Assembly: GCA_001856825.1 (NCBI GenBank)
Contig: ATMD01000001.1
Coordinates: 389,078-453,077 of the forward strand
Length of the DNA: 64,000 nt
Direction: 5' to 3'
Source of the DNA: Thermoplasmatales archaeon I-plasma
Lineage (GTDB): Archaea > Thermoplasmatota > Thermoplasmata > Thermoplasmatales > GCA-001856825
How positions within the stretch are numbered: position 1 is the first letter of the stretch; each line of letters starts with the position of its first letter. The position numbers and the translations under genes were made by a program. Shown in pieces: positions 6,155 through 10,437 of the stretch. The notes under the pieces were generated by a model. That model had not been told where the DNA came from, searched no databases, and saw only the letters and a list, made by a program, of their open reading frames with translations.

Positions 6155-6923
6155 ATGAAAGCGTGCGTCCTAACGATCGGAAATGAAATACTTAAAGGAA
6201 AGACAGTGAATACAAACGCAGCAGAGATTGGTAGAATGCTTTACTTTGCTGGATATGAGGTGTATCGAGGACTTGTTGTTCCGGACGTAAAAGAGGAGAT
6301 CGGTCAGGCCTTCAGGTCCCTTGTAGGCATCTGTGATGTAATCGTGTCGACAGGAGGCCTTGGACCAACTTTCGATGATATGACCATATCGTCATTTGCA
6401 GATGAATTCAACATCCCTTTGGAATTGAATGAGGATGTTTACAAGGAGATAAGAGCTAGGACGGAAAGGAGCGGAATGGAAATGACGAAGGAACGTGAAA
6501 AGATGGCTCTAGTCCCCAAAGGGTTCAATAATACTGAAGAACGACGTAGGGACTGCTCCTGGTATTGAGTACAAAATGGGGTCCACACGTATCTTTCTTA
6601 CTCCAGGTGTCCCATCTGAAATGAGGTCTATGCTGAGTTTGATAGAGAGAGAAATTAAGCTTAAGGACAGTTTCTATTTCGAAGACTCAGTAGTTATAGT
6701 GGGGATCTATGAGGCTTCGCTGGCTCCATACATCACGAAGCTCATGAACGAATACGGTGGTACTGTGTACATAAAGTCGCACCCTAGTATTAAAGATGGG
6801 AGGGAATCATCACTTGAAGTAGAAGTGTCTGCAAAGTCTGATACCTTGGATAACTCAAGGAGGGTAGTTCTAGAAGTGCTGGATAAGATAAGATCAATAG
6901 AACGAGAAATAAAGTCTCATTGA
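6155..6923 (+). CDS. CinA-like molybdopterin-binding (MocF) domain protein, frameshifted
   Basis: IGNEILKG..VNTN, TGGLGPTFDDMT, PGVPSEM, YIKSHP. One extra base in CCCCAAAGGG at 6514-6523 breaks the expected PKGS..N.VGTAPG. Confidence 0.85.
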
Positions 6924-7018
6924 GTGCCTCATTTCCCATCCCGTAGTTAGACAACAGTCTTTCAAACGGTCTAAGACCTATAGAACCGTATATCTAACAA
7001 CTTACATCGCAAGAGAAT

Positions 7019-7453
7019 TCACACATCATCCGGGACATCATAGTTGCAGTATACGTCTTCGTCTTTATTTGTTTCAAGCAAGGAGATAGCCCTATCAATT
7101 AATATCAACTTTCTTCCTGTCACCACTGAATCAATGGTCTCCTCATTTTCGGAAATTGCACTTGCAAGTATGGAATATCTCTTTTTCTCCAATTCACTTA
7201 TTAGTACAGACTTGGCTCTGTCTTTTGCCGTTTCAAAGTCATTACCTGCAGTTACCTTCTTTATATACAAGAGGTATAGCAGGTTAGAGAAGAAAATGTC
7301 CCTAGCTACTTCAAAATACCCATTGGTCTTCTTCGAGAACTCTATGCTATGCAACGATATTAGTAGCCTAGAATCTTCATCGCTCGGGTAGATCCCCTTT
7401 CTATATTCCTTCATTAATCTCTCTTTTGAAGCTAATTCCTGAGACGTTGTCAT
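7019..7453 (-). CDS. Hypothetical protein (144 aa, helical, acidic C-terminus)
   Basis: Long ORF in AT-rich DNA; GGAGGGG RBS at the end of the upstream ORF, 1-nt gap. Confidence 0.65.
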   Translation of the reverse strand: MTTSQELASKERLMKEYRKGIYPSDEDSRLLISLHSIEFSKKTNGYFEVARDIFFSNLLYLLYIKKVTAGNDFETAKDRAKSVLISELEKKRYSILASAISENEETIDSVVTGRKLILIDRAISLLETNKDEDVYCNYDVPDDV

Positions 7454-7454
7454 T

Positions 7455-7877
7455 TCAAATTGCCCCTCCTTTTCCTTTAAGTGACATTATTTCACCAAAA
7501 ATATTAAAATTTTTATCAAACTCAAAAATGGAATTTTGTCTAGACAATGAATTATTCGGTATTCCTAATGTCAGTTTAGATTTTAAATCCCATTTATCGG
7601 CTAAACCGAGAATATCATATCCTTTACTGCCGGTGAACCAGTTCAACGTTGTAACTGACAGTCCAACTTTGTCGGCTCTGCAAGGAGAAGAGAGGCTATT
7701 GTAGGGGGCAGGCTCCTCAACTGAAGAGGGGGATACATTCTTCAGGGGGAATCCCTTCCTCTGCCACAGCCAATTTTCTCCAGCTTCCGATATGTCATCG
7801 CCGTTTACCGATATTACGAAGTACTGTGAAGGGTTACTTCGCATCGCCCACACAGGACTTGTATATTCAGTTTTCAT
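7455..7877 (-). CDS. Hypothetical protein (about 140 aa)
   Basis: Long ORF, coupled to 7019-7453; ATG at 7877 preferred; no recognised motif. Confidence 0.55.
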   Translation of the reverse strand: MKTEYTSPVWAMRSNPSQYFVISVNGDDISEAGENWLWQRKGFPLKNVSPSSVEEPAPYNSLSSPCRADKVGLSVTTLNWFTGSKGYDILGLADKWDLKSKLTLGIPNNSLSRQNSIFEFDKNFNIFGEIMSLKGKGGAI

Positions 7878-7922
7878 TTTATTTCCAATCAAGTAATCGA
7901 TGGGGGGTATTCAATAGTATGA

Positions 7923-7949
7923 TAAAGTTAGAAAATTTTTCTAACTTTA
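7923..7949. promoter_or_regulatory. Perfect 27-bp palindrome TAAAGTTAGAAAA-T-TTTTCTAACTTTA, putative operator
   Basis: 13-bp perfect inverted arms, centred at 7936 between divergent starts at 7877 and 7997. Confidence 0.7.
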
Positions 7950-7996
7950 CAGTAGTATCGAAATACCAGTTAATTATAGAATCTCGGGGGATTAGA

Positions 7997-8092
7997 ATGT
8001 TTGACATAATTGCAATGGTGCTTTCCCTAAGTGCATTCACTTTCTTCGCAATTGTGAAGTCACTTGGTGGAGCCTTTATGGGAAGCGGATAG
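7997..8092 (+). CDS. Small hydrophobic peptide, 31 aa (MFDIIAMVLSLSAFTFFAIVKSLGGAFMGSG)
   Basis: ATG preceded by GGGGGA (7986-7991) and a TATA-like TAATTATA (7971-7978); one hydrophobic helix plus a Gly-rich tail. Confidence 0.55.
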   Translation: MFDIIAMVLSLSAFTFFAIVKSLGGAFMGSG

Positions 8093-8116
8093 GCATATAT
8101 TGCCCTTTTAATCTAC

Positions 8117-8142
8117 TTTCTAACTTTTTTATACTTTATATT
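8117..8142 (+). promoter_or_regulatory. Operator half-site TTTCTAACTTT abutting TATA-like boxes upstream of 8154
   Basis: 11-bp identity to the right arm of the 7923-7949 palindrome, followed by TTTATA twice. Confidence 0.5.
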
Positions 8143-8153
8143 ATTCCAACATA

Positions 8154-9110
8154 ATGGTTTTAGGTCAGAAGGAAGGCGTCTGTCCCGTTTGCGGAGAAAA
8201 GGCGAAGGTTACAAACAAATGGGTCTTGAATAGGTATGGGAAGCGCTATGATTATTTTCTGTACCATCACGATGGATTTATCCATTATTCAAACCAAAAT
8301 TTTAGAAATTCAAAATATTTCCGTAAGGGCCAATTGGAAAATATACTTATAGAAACAATTAACTCTCAAGATTTCAAATTAGGCTCCTTCAGAATAAATG
8401 ACCTAAGAAATATTCTCGTCAAAGATTACCCAGAGGTTGGGTTCAGTTCGATTAAGGTTAGTTTAAATAGACTTGCGTTGGTTGGCATTATAGAGAAGCA
8501 GAAGAAGGGAAGAAGCCTATTCTACGTTAACACAGTTTCCAAAGAAAGGCTCAGCTATATAATCGAGAGCATTAATGTGTCACTTGATGATGTAAATGAT
8601 GATAATATGTTCACGAGGCATTTATTTTATTATAAGATTAGAAATGATCACTCTTGGCCATTATTTTATGTTCCTTTTAGGGCAGTAGGGGATGTAGAAG
8701 CAGAGTTTGAAAATTTATTAATGAAAGCAAAAGATCCTACTAGCTCTAAGGACATAAGGTTGATGGTAATAGAAGATACTGATAATGATAAGCGGATTTT
8801 GTTAAAACTACCCACACCGTTACTTCCAAATGAAGATAGGAAAATTGCTATAGAATACCAATGGCCCGAGCCGAAACAGCTGTTTGTATATTCATCAGCT
8901 ACTAAAATGAATAATTTCAACTTTTCAATCTCAGGTAATAGACCAATAAAGCTTAGCGTCTCTCTAACTAGCGCATCTAGAAACGAGACCCTTGACCTAA
9001 CGAAGGAAGTTAGTGAAAGTTCTTCAGAGAATAGGAAATATATCTGTAGCATTGTACTAAAAGACGTAGAACCATTTTCAGTACTTCAGTTAAGGTGGAA
9101 GCAAAATTGA
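8154..9110 (+). CDS. Putative DNA-binding protein: Zn-finger (CPVC...HH.GFIH), winged helix, beta-rich C-terminal domain
   Basis: CxxC plus His pair; central wHTH-like SIKVSLNRLALVGIIEKQKKGRSLFY; alternating beta-strand pattern ending LQLRW. Confidence 0.75.
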   Translation: MVLGQKEGVCPVCGEKAKVTNKWVLNRYGKRYDYFLYHHDGFIHYSNQNFRNSKYFRKGQLENILIETINSQDFKLGSFRINDLRNILVKDYPEVGFSSIKVSLNRLALVGIIEKQKKGRSLFYVNTVSKERLSYIIESINVSLDDVNDDNMFTRHLFYYKIRNDHSWPLFYVPFRAVGDVEAEFENLLMKAKDPTSSKDIRLMVIEDTDNDKRILLKLPTPLLPNEDRKIAIEYQWPEPKQLFVYSSATKMNNFNFSISGNRPIKLSVSLTSASRNETLDLTKEVSESSSENRKYICSIVLKDVEPFSVLQLRWKQN

Positions 9111-9169
9111 GATGATGTCTGGCAGAACATACAGAAATTTGAATACCTAAGTATACAATTGTGGATTTA

Positions 9170-10138
9170 ATGGGAAGGAACTCGGTTTTAGAAGTTTGCA
9201 AAGTGTGCGGAAGACAGGCCAAGAAGATAAACTACTCATCAAGAGCAAAAGGAAGGACCTACCGATATTATAAATTCGTTCATCAGAATGGAGTGACGCA
9301 CTATTTTAGAATAAGTGATGACCTAATCTCACAAAATGCACATTTAATTGAACCTAGTACATCCTACCTTGGCTTACTTGAAGACATATTGAATAAGAGT
9401 GTGCCCGGGAAGGGATTAACTTTCTCAGAAATTAAATCTGCACTCGATGAAAGGTATGGACGATTGGTTAGCACTGCCACTGTTTACAGAAATATTAATA
9501 AAATGCTGAAACTTGATTTGATAATCAAGCAGGAAGATGGAAATAAGATACTTTATAGTAAGAAAACTCAGTCAAATTCTACAGAAGGTACTATAATAGT
9601 TAGTATGTCAATAGGTTTTGATTTTACAGAAGGAACGGTATTTGTGACCCAATTTATTCACATTAATAATCTTGGGCTTCAGTTGATTAATAATTTTCCT
9701 GTATCTCTGCCGGTAGGAGTGATTGATTCTCCAGGCCAAATTAGCTTGATTGCATTTGACAGTATTAGAAAAATTCCTCTCAAAAAGGAATGTATTACAT
9801 ATTCCTATGCCGACCAAACAGGAATTTTAATTACCCTAAATAAGGCATTACGAAAGTCTGAAGAAGAAACAATTTTTCTACATTATAGTTTAAATTCAGA
9901 AGAAAGGCCTATTAACATTTTCGTGCCGTCTGATTTCAAATCTATAAAAGTTAATTGCGAAATCGATAAGGGGAAGGATATTTTGATAAAGAAAAAATTG
10001 GGAGATGGACTTAAAGAAATAGAACCGGTGCTTGTGAGAAGAACCGGAACAGATTTAGGGCACGTTATTGTGGAAGCAGAGTTCGAGAACACTTTCAGAG
10101 GGGACACTCTAGTCATAGCACATGGCAAATCTATGTAG
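9170..10138 (+). CDS. Paralogous Zn-finger/winged-helix/beta-domain protein
   Basis: CKVC...YRYYKFVHQNGVTHY; ATVYRNINKMLKLDLIIKQEDGNKILY (Fur/ArsR-like wHTH); same architecture as 8154-9110; alternative GTG start at 9161. Confidence 0.75.
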   Translation: MGRNSVLEVCKVCGRQAKKINYSSRAKGRTYRYYKFVHQNGVTHYFRISDDLISQNAHLIEPSTSYLGLLEDILNKSVPGKGLTFSEIKSALDERYGRLVSTATVYRNINKMLKLDLIIKQEDGNKILYSKKTQSNSTEGTIIVSMSIGFDFTEGTVFVTQFIHINNLGLQLINNFPVSLPVGVIDSPGQISLIAFDSIRKIPLKKECITYSYADQTGILITLNKALRKSEEETIFLHYSLNSEERPINIFVPSDFKSIKVNCEIDKGKDILIKKKLGDGLKEIEPVLVRRTGTDLGHVIVEAEFENTFRGDTLVIAHGKSM

Positions 10139-10167
10139 CAATTAAAGTCAATGACACTTATAATAAG

Positions 10168-10242
10168 CGCCCGAGCTGGGATTCGAACCCAGGTCTGAGG
10201 CTCCGCAGGCCTCTAGGATAATCCAAACTACCCCACTCGGGC
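10168..10242 (-). tRNA. tRNA-Arg(GCG)
   Basis: Cloverleaf GCCCGAG...CTCGGGCG, anticodon arm GAGGC-CT-GCG-GA-GCCTC, TTCGAAT loop; no intron or CCA. Confidence 0.97.
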
Positions 10243-10437
10243 TTATAGGCTTTCAGAAACTCTCTCTAGAAAGATTATAGATTCTAGAAATTCATTTAAA
10301 GTCTTTCTAACATCGTTCGCATTGCCATTCACGGAACACATGAACCCATTCCTCGTCTTCCTGCAACTTATGTACTTGCTGTGGTCCGCCTTTAAGGCCC
10401 GGATTATGTTGTCAGATCCGGCACCACTAATTTTCAA
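10243..10437 (-). CDS. KEOPS complex subunit Pcc1-like small protein
   Basis: 64 aa; I.RALK.D and VRKTLNEFLESI resemble the Pcc1 pattern (LRAxxNSxL). Confidence 0.55.
   Translation of the reverse strand: MKISGAGSDNIIRALKADHSKYISCRKTRNGFMCSVNGNANDVRKTLNEFLESIIFLERVSESL

Follow-up and report, generated by a model that had tools for sequence, protein, structure and literature searches.

In the genome of Thermoplasmatales archaeon I-plasma (1.69 Mb, six contigs), a 3.1-kb block that is visibly richer in AT than its surroundings ends next to the 3' end of a tRNA gene, which raises the question of whether a foreign regulatory switch was inserted there and what its genes might do together. The block occupies positions 7019–10138 of the window, that is, of the whole 64,000-nucleotide stretch of contig ATMD01000001.1 (389,078–453,077) that was analysed; positions below refer to the window unless another sequence is named. 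A first-pass annotation, made from the letters alone, had taken the block for an acquired, autoregulated switch, possibly a peptide-signalling or defence-control module. To place it, 12 loci were fetched from relatives, 11 of them from the same genus. Their comparison indicates that the palindrome, half-site, peptide and twin Zn-finger/winged-helix proteins of the block form one conserved cassette that has been duplicated as a unit, since these elements occur together in paralogous copies and in other genera; on this point the first-pass annotation was right. We read the cassette as a lineage-specific, autoregulated pair of putative transcription factors, here called ZA and ZB, with a dyad operator and a membrane micro-protein as partner, and we put the probability of this reading at roughly 55%.

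Architecture of the cassette

The elements that had been listed for the block, namely a divergent layout, a perfect palindrome, a repeated half-site, a 31-aa peptide open reading frame (ORF), twin paralogues and the coupled orfX and orfY, were all found where the first-pass annotation had placed them. On the plus strand, the last 31 codons (7997–8092) of an ORF spanning 7826–8092 encode the peptide MFDIIAMVLSLSAFTFFAIVKSLGGAFMGSG, which consists of a single predicted hydrophobic helix followed by a basic residue and a Gly-rich tail. Downstream of it lie ZA (8154–9110, plus strand, 318 aa), which combines a C2H2 Zn-ribbon, a winged helix–turn–helix (wHTH) and a beta-sandwich, and ZB (9170–10138, plus strand, 322 aa). 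The listed ORF of ZB begins with GTG 9161, and ATG 9170 is the likely start because database relatives align from residue 4. On the minus strand, orfX (7019–7453, 144 aa, as in the ORF listing) is separated by 1 base from orfY (7455–7877), which has 140 aa when read from a conserved ATG at 7877; the listed ORF covers 7455–7892 and starts with TTG 7892. The ZB stop lies 28 nt from the 3' end of tRNA-Arg(GCG) (10167–10242, minus strand), which borders the cassette at this end without being a functional part of it.

Between the divergent genes lies a perfect palindrome of 12 + 1 + 12 nt (7924–7948; AAAGTTAGAAAA-T-TTTTCTAACTTT, with the core GTTAG-N9-CTAAC), which is the presumed operator. It is surrounded by an extended imperfect inverted repeat (7910–7962) whose 26-nt arms are 81% complementary and which holds TATA-like elements facing both ways, one following each arm of the dyad. 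A Shine–Dalgarno (SD)-like GGGGGAT (7986–7992, plus strand) stands 5–11 nt 5' of the peptide ATG. By repeat search, a third half-site was located at 8117–8124, where TTTCTAAC repeats the right arm of the palindrome and directly abuts a T-rich TATA-like box, TTTTTTATAC; together these two elements (8117–8134, plus strand) lie ~25 nt 5' of the ZA ATG.

Domain composition of ZA and ZB

ZA and ZB are 24% identical across their N-terminal ~150 aa (E 3e-7) and are tandem paralogues. The structural model of ZA (mean predicted local distance difference test (pLDDT) score 79.9) is composed of a Zn-ribbon (residues 6–46), a winged helix (~57–130) and an all-beta domain (131–318). Its Zn ligands C10, C13, H39 and H44 are invariant in 22 sequences, and the ZB residues C13, C16, H41 and H47 in 19. 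The claim that both proteins have three domains thus holds for ZA by its model; for ZB, the same layout is suggested by its paralogy to ZA and its full-length alignment with B-type relatives.

The ZA wHTH gave fold matches to Fur, PerR, Zur, MecI and PadR (Z 8.6–9.8). The best of these matches are DNA-binding repressors, and superposition on the Fur/PerR/MecI-type repressors covered ~70 aa with Z 8.7–9.8 and a root-mean-square deviation (rmsd) of 1.7–3.0. Searches of Pfam and NCBIfam with ZA and ZB returned sub-threshold wHTH matches only, among them the Pfam families Penicillinase_R, FUR and HTH_20: ZA scored 17.7 bits against Penicillinase_R (PF03965, cut-off 22.6) and 14 bits against TIGR02698 (cut-off 121.95), and ZB scored 15.4 bits against FUR (PF01475, cut-off 23.1). 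ZA therefore resembles the Fur/PerR/Zur and BlaI/MecI/CopY groups in the superposition of its wHTH (Z 8.7–9.8) and in weak Pfam matches, and the cassette resembles Fur/BlaI-type repressors in having a dyad, the presumed ZA/ZB operator, that overlaps its own promoter region. In contrast to those repressors, whose dimerisation/sensor domain is missing in ZA, only the ZA wHTH (57–130) aligns to Fur proteins, and ZA carries an N-terminal C2H2 Zn-ribbon and a 190-aa beta-sandwich and belongs to an obligatory tandem A/B pair. Membership in the Fur or BlaI family failed both on score, all Pfam scores being below their cut-offs, and on domain content. Taken with the model, these matches suggest that ZA and ZB are sequence-specific DNA binders.

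The all-beta domain of ZA (131–318) has a fold in common with the N-domain of M1 aminopeptidases (LTA4H, ERAP1, tricorn factor F3), with ribophorin I/OST1 and with TAF2. The LTA4H N-domain (5fwq_A) superposed over 164 residues with Z 13.7 and rmsd 3.0, ribophorin I/OST1 gave Z 13.3 (6c26_1) and 13.2 (6s7o_E), and TAF2 (5fur_I) and 1z1w_A gave Z 11.0 and 10.9, respectively; Foldseek E-values for the domain were 1e-6 to 1e-5 and sequence identity was 6–12%. ZA differs from the M1 peptidases and ribophorin I in this low identity, in the lack of a Pfam match, a catalytic domain and a membrane anchor, and in the fusion to a Zn-ribbon and a wHTH. Neither Peptidase_M1 (Pfam) nor a thermolysin-like catalytic peptidase domain with an HEXXH motif was found in ZA, which ends with the beta domain at residue 318, and no signal peptide or membrane segment was found in ZA or ZB. 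Within the domain, a conserved patch (H156, N164, P169, G179, D180, K213, R214, E239 and P240) points to a candidate binding site. A search of the ESM Atlas with the beta domain returned unnamed clusters only. Prediction of a ZA+ZB complex from two alignments (A1 and A2) scored 0.33, 0.01 and 0.01 against a mark of 0.32, a result that bears on a heterodimer neither way.

No family that unites Zn-ribbon, wHTH and M1-N/ribophorin-like beta-sandwich in a tandem A/B pair behind a micro-protein gene was found in Pfam, NCBIfam, PADLOC, PHROGs and Rfam. PADLOC gave no family at E <= 0.01 for the cassette products, its only listed match being Csx19 (E 0.027, with 0 accepted stretches), and for the five products neither PHROGs nor NCBIfam yielded a usable match. 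No literature on the ZA/ZB family was found at the level of listings and abstracts, and the matched passages of PMC4158269 include none on the module. The micropeptide–ZA–ZB cassette thus appears to be undescribed so far, and the earlier impression that it matches no known system agrees with the lack of a family match in Pfam, NCBIfam, PADLOC and PHROGs.

The dyad and its half-sites

The pattern TTAGAA-N1-7-TTCTAA has two copies in the 1.69-Mb genome, each ~220 nt upstream of a ZA-type gene, and the general form of the dyad across relatives is GTTAG-N8-10-CTAAC. Its outer 8-bp arms keep full symmetry across 12 genomes (96 of 96 cells). Around the dyad, a region of ~60 nt shows near-invariant columns in the 12-genome alignment and is conserved better than flanking coding sequence; the repeat at 7910–7962 is the most conserved non-coding stretch of the locus. 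The half-site and TATA-like box at 8117–8134 likewise form invariant columns in 12 genomes, and a half-site abutting a TATA-like box is present directly 5' of ZA in type-1 cassettes, to which that of the window belongs, and in type-2 cassettes. By archaeal promoter geometry, 7910–7962 would be a back-to-back divergent promoter, and 8117–8134 is presumed to be an autoregulated, near-leaderless ZA promoter.

When the genome was scanned for GTTAG-N7-11-CTAAC, three sites were obtained: the cassette itself, one upstream of an unrelated winged-helix regulator gene and one inside a long ORF. No wider regulon was seen in this genome-wide scan. The half-site TTTCTAAC taken alone is not enriched (21 and 22 copies vs ~40 expected per strand). 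In an Rfam search of 6800–10400 only the tRNA passed, and the palindrome scored at chance level (21.2 bits vs a gathering score of 86). Two dyad positions are altered on both arms in the G002/G007/G008 clade, which represents one lineage and at most two events; in this clade, ZA and ZB likewise show changes in their predicted recognition helices.

The micropeptide

The peptide ORF is intact in 12 of 12 type-1, five of seven type-2 and eight of ten other cassettes (25 of 29 altogether), across three genera and down to a ZA identity of 23%, and its length stays within 30–37 aa. In type-1 peptides, the variable columns at the three codon positions number 21, 15 and 27 of 31, and the G-rich motif before the ORF is kept in 12 of 12 type-1 loci. 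The excess of variation at third codon positions, the kept length, the SD-like motif and the linkage to the ZA/ZB pair argue that the peptide is encoded by a genuine gene. Within each cassette type the tail motifs are kept, in patterns specific to that type. Being essentially one hydrophobic helix plus ~10 residues, without the positively charged start of a signal peptide, the peptide looks like a single-pass, membrane-retained helix rather than a secreted precursor, and its basic residue and Gly-rich tail would face the cytoplasm. A Pfam search with six peptides gave no family.

The four cassettes that lack an intact peptide ORF are the second cassettes of this genome and of G010, one with a 12-aa remnant and one with an insertion sequence (IS) element upstream. 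In the latter (G007:C18), the IS element, which encodes a DDE_3 transposase and a helix–turn–helix (HTH) protein (L039 8202–9231), immediately precedes a type-3 ZA/ZB pair, and no other type-3 cassette is entirely devoid of a peptide ORF.

Duplicated cassettes and their neighbourhoods

A second pair, ZA'/ZB', lies ~10 kb away in the same genome, outside the window. Located ~2–4 kb ahead of the first window position, its cassette (G000:C1:384981-387142; L007 6979-9146) includes a dyad of its own, and the proteins are 42% (ZA'/ZA) and 29% (ZB'/ZB) identical to those of the window. It is flanked by two archaeal Pilin_N proteins and by membrane proteins. Its peptide ORF and orfX' have decayed, as in G010, and both are intact in five other genomes. 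Relatives hold up to four pairs, and the A type always comes before the B type; the A/B split is therefore older than the cassette duplications.

Type-2 cassettes share this layout: the dyad stands ~220 nt upstream and is followed by a TATA-like box and an SD-like motif; next come a hydrophobic peptide of 33 aa, again with a Gly-rich tail, and, before ZA', a half-site with TATA-like box. In type-3 cassettes and in the cassettes of two other genera, a 30–37-aa peptide is encoded ~140–160 nt 5' of the ZA-type gene, and an SD scan located a GGAGGTGAT-like motif before the peptide in seven of these type-3 and other-genus cassettes.

Downstream of the type-2 pair, genes for a 97-aa membrane protein, an archaeal Pilin_N protein and a 197-aa membrane protein are found in seven genomes, and upstream of it another Pilin_N protein, also in seven genomes. 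Out of seven same-genus type-3 cassettes examined, four (L040, L042, L044 and L047) face genes for Ser/Thr/Asn-rich proteins of 376–528 aa with hydrophobic, signal-like N-termini, and a fifth (L041) has a gene for a Ser/Thr/Asn-rich protein (396 aa) ~570 nt away on the pair's own strand. From their sequences, we read these as probable secreted or surface proteins. The second cassette of G012 (L031 17358-18412) looks broken: two ZB'-like fragments that lie in different frames come after orfX' there, and ZA' went undetected.

On the divergent side stands orfX, a lineage-restricted protein and the divergent partner of the cassette. Its orthologues at 10 loci are 45–92% identical, and its homologues flank type-1 and some type-2 cassettes in divergent orientation, as they do in two other genera. 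The orfX model (pLDDT 73.8) shows beta hairpins and two long helices. The best match in a fold search was at noise level (Z 7.5), a PDB profile search with the orfX alignment gave E-values of at least 0.015, the ESM Atlas yielded nothing usable, and none of its 17 database relatives is named. orfY is an intact ORF of 137–142 aa at an identical position in 12 of 12 type-1 loci, and only short motifs (SPS, GLADK..KSK) are shared. By tblastn with the orfY of the window, 32–54% identity was obtained in five of the ten relative loci that bear orfX, the other five falling below detection (E 1e-3). Between the window and G010, identity is 54% for orfY, 92% for orfX and 88% for ZA; orfY thus diverges far faster than its neighbours.

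Proposed mechanism and alternatives

If the cassette is an autoregulated transcription-factor pair with a membrane partner, the winged helices of ZA and ZB would recognise the GTTAG/CTAAC half-sites. The dyad would lie between two back-to-back promoters, one for orfY–orfX and one for the peptide gene, the further half-site would abut the TATA box of the ZA–ZB promoter, and the pair would regulate itself, the peptide and the divergent genes; the binding to DNA, like the direction of regulation, is what we infer from folds and layout. The 31-aa membrane micro-protein, presumably translated, may hold or release ZA/ZB via their beta-sandwich domains, a contact that, like the topology of the peptide, is part of the proposal, and the state of the cell envelope would be coupled to transcription through it. 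The A/B pair would have arisen before the cassette was duplicated, with daughter cassettes now standing beside type IV pilin and secreted surface-protein genes.

A more specific version would amount to a new kind of signal transduction, and we offer it as a speculation that is rather unlikely to hold in full. Here the 30–37-aa membrane micro-protein would be the sensor or anchor of a heteromeric ZA/ZB, its Gly-rich tail would dock in the M1-N/ribophorin-like beta-sandwich, the state of the envelope would decide whether the pair stays at the membrane or is set free to reach the GTTAG/CTAAC operator, and the duplicates would control pilins and surface glycoproteins in wall-less acidophiles. In bacteria, the small membrane protein MgrB modulates the regulator PhoQ, and in Sulfolobales the membrane-associated wHTH regulator ArnR acts on surface structures. 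The proposed logic would be analogous, in that a membrane element would control a regulator and pilin or surface-protein genes lie nearby; no relation in sequence or fold was found, and the present cassette has a separate 31-aa membrane protein and soluble paralogous regulators.

Several points weigh against an autoregulated pair with a micro-protein partner. We know of no case in which the beta-sandwich fold takes part in transcription-factor signalling, and fold similarity is no proof of function. The dyad spacer varies between 8 and 10 nt, which is unusual for a rigid dimer site, and symmetric compensatory changes in the arms are equally compatible with a hairpin. The recognition-helix changes of the G002/G007/G008 clade lie among 27–28 clade-specific columns per protein, and co-evolution of operator and helix is therefore only a hint. 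Type-1 cassettes have no adjacent envelope gene. Finally, the peptide is missing or degenerate in four of 29 cassettes, including the second cassette of this genome, and is therefore dispensable for ZA/ZB.

The alternative that survives best, although we think it unlikely, gives ZA and ZB a non-transcriptional role, for example one in which, jointly with the micropeptide, they help to assemble or quality-control membrane or surface proteins, and takes the dyad for shared back-to-back promoter architecture. Winged helices from proteins other than transcription factors (Stn1, Vps25, cullin and histone H5) are among the fold matches of ZA with Z 8.3–9.2, but the best matches of this domain are the DNA-binding repressors. 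Likewise, the beta domain resembles the polypeptide-handling ribophorin I/OST1 and M1 N-domains, and pilins, membrane proteins and secreted proteins are neighbours of the cassettes, yet ZA and ZB themselves have neither signal peptide nor membrane segment. The TATA-like element after each dyad arm would suit an ordinary promoter; however, the arrangement of dyad and half-site is unique to ZA loci in the genome, and general promoter elements would recur genome-wide, whereas TTTCTAAC is not enriched.

It is also improbable, and more so, that export or processing turns the peptide into a diffusible signal sensed by ZA/ZB, which would make the cassette a quorum-type switch like Rgg/SHP or arbitrium. 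The receptors of Rgg/SHP, PlcR/PapR and AimR/AimP are HTH proteins with tetratricopeptide repeats (TPR). The cassette is like these systems in that a very short hydrophobic peptide gene stands beside a presumed cognate regulator and operator, immediately 5' of the presumed regulators in 25 of 29 cassettes, and in its cassette-specific tails, which would be expected of cognate signal–receptor pairs; in one relative, G018, a pair of ATP-binding cassette (ABC) permeases adjoins ZB. It differs in that ZA is no HTH+TPR protein and has no TPR-type peptide receptor domain (the Pfam scan gave no TPR family, and the ZA model is Zn-ribbon, wHTH and all-beta), and in that the peptide, which lacks a positively charged start and has little beyond its one helix, is predicted to be retained in the membrane. 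The cassette moreover has no conserved genes for an exporter, a processing protease or an importer, ABC genes being found at only one of 12 loci, its host is an archaeon and its context is core chromosome. Neither for peptide signalling nor for defence control, the two functions that the first-pass annotation had considered, did we find support either way, the searches of PADLOC and PHROGs having come back empty.

A membrane-damaging toxin silenced by ZA/ZB, as part of an addiction or stress module, has somewhat less in its favour still and is quite improbable. Its supposed toxin would resemble ~30-aa type I toxins or holin-like peptides in size and single hydrophobic helix, the presumed operator lies ~10 nt upstream of the TATA-like element of the peptide promoter, and orfY evolves very fast; but the cassettes keep fixed chromosomal positions with synteny conserved across the genus, PADLOC and PHROGs gave no match, and a strong SD-like motif together with the conservation of the Gly-rich tail suggests that the protein is made routinely and has a specific partner. 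Two genomes, in addition, kept ZA'/ZB' after loss of the peptide, the opposite of what addiction predicts.

As an autoregulated transcription-factor pair with a micro-protein partner, the cassette would bear on two poorly charted subjects. Archaeal signal transduction is poorly understood, notably in wall-less extreme acidophiles such as the Thermoplasmata, and functional micro-proteins are among the least annotated genes. Comparative genomics here delivers a compact system, with a unique presumed operator, a micro-protein and two paralogous putative regulators of unprecedented domain combination, that was duplicated several times in one lineage and is small enough for in vitro reconstitution. 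It could reveal how a membrane micro-protein and transcription factors communicate, and how duplication, with operator, peptide tail and recognition helix evolving together, lets such a module diversify. Should the link to the peptide be false, ZA and ZB would still make up a new lineage-specific family of transcription factors.

Distribution and inheritance of the locus

Among other genomes, 17 of 18 in the genus and 20 of 24 in the family carry a ZA-type gene; none was found in 16 genomes from six other families of the order. The ZB profile gave one match among 300 other genomes of the class. This match (L049, G200:C11:573-1466) sits on a 1.6-kb contig in a genome of another family, and may be due to gene transfer or to a mis-binned contig. 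ZA has 33 relatives among 5.8 billion protein clusters, the named ones all from Thermoplasmata, and ZB has 21 among 1.84 billion representatives. Judging by these sequence searches, the ZA/ZB family is almost restricted to one uncultured Thermoplasmata family. In sequencing archives, 19 DNA runs from 10 studies (mine drainage, mine tailings, sediment and hot-spring metagenomes) contain at least 79% of the sampled words. Contigs from one RNA library (X20) cover only orfX 7027–7443 and ZB 9484–9639; contigs from an RNA library are no proof of transcription, and the gap over the peptide and ZA carries no weight.

The first-pass annotation had proposed looking for the same gene order in archaeal genomes and computing a GC/codon profile. 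The order MoCF–orfX–(orfY)–peptide–ZA–ZB is kept in 10 of 11 same-genus loci, the 11th running into a contig edge, and no empty site was found among these relatives. The genes on the far side (the 64-aa ORF, an EF-Tu-domain-2 protein and PadR) come next in eight loci. Identity to the proteins of the window is 47–88% for ZA, 41–83% for ZB and 45–92% for orfX, and 79–95% for the flanking EF-Tu-like protein. The tRNA-Arg(GCG) adjoins the cassette in nine of 12 loci scanned, and the spacing between it and ZB differs among genomes. As had been noted, the block by the tRNA is AT-rich: its GC content is 36.5%, and that of ZA and ZB 35.6%, vs 44.3% for the genome, and only 0.3% of 2-kb genome windows are equally low. 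However, ZA/ZB orthologues are also GC-poorer than their own flanks in eight of eight relatives, so the low GC is a stable trait of the genes themselves.

Scans of the five products with Pfam, NCBIfam and PHROGs turned up no integrase, recombinase or transposase domain, nor any other that is typical of mobile elements. The 3' part of the tRNA (23 nt, up to three mismatches) occurs once in the 64-kb window, with no second copy, and a repeat search gave chance-level repeats only. The claim of acquisition at the tRNA 3' end is thus not supported, in view of the conserved gene order, the missing integrase and tRNA repeat and the shared low GC: the cassette is, by all these comparisons, an old, vertically inherited module and no recent insertion. 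An acquisition that predates the radiation of the family is possible.

Least probable of all the explanations, then, is that a mobile element or provirus once integrated at tRNA-Arg(GCG) and left the block as its remnant, with ZA and ZB as the element's own regulators, for although the adjoining tRNA 3' end, a GC content in the lowest 0.3% of the genome, the narrow and fast-evolving gene families and a variable tRNA–ZB junction in G018, G009 and G006 would fit, the divergence of the locus is also comparable to that of a core locus and other cassettes occupy conserved positions without a tRNA.

Between tRNA-Arg(GCG) and ZB, the junction measures 3.2 kb in G018 (L028 556-3805), where it holds two ABC-permease-like membrane proteins and a 204-aa membrane protein, 1.25 kb in G009 (L035 4524-5779), with a 262-aa ORF, and 0.8 kb in G006 (L032 2662-3459). 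If there is an insertion hotspot, it would be this junction and not the surroundings of the cassette.

Neighbouring genes

On the orfX side, the MoCF/CinA-like gene is present in the window as two ORFs (6155–6568 and 6576–6923), split by one additional base in a C run near 6514 when compared with the intact 255-aa gene of G010; the break is either a real frameshift or an assembly error. Beyond the tRNA, a 64-aa ORF (10243–10437, minus strand) with 59–91% identity in eight relatives starts 1 base from the 5' end of tRNA-Arg, its own end lying 5 nt from the EF-Tu-domain-2 stop codon, and the tRNA-Arg, this ORF and the EF-Tu-domain-2 gene form a tightly packed trio.

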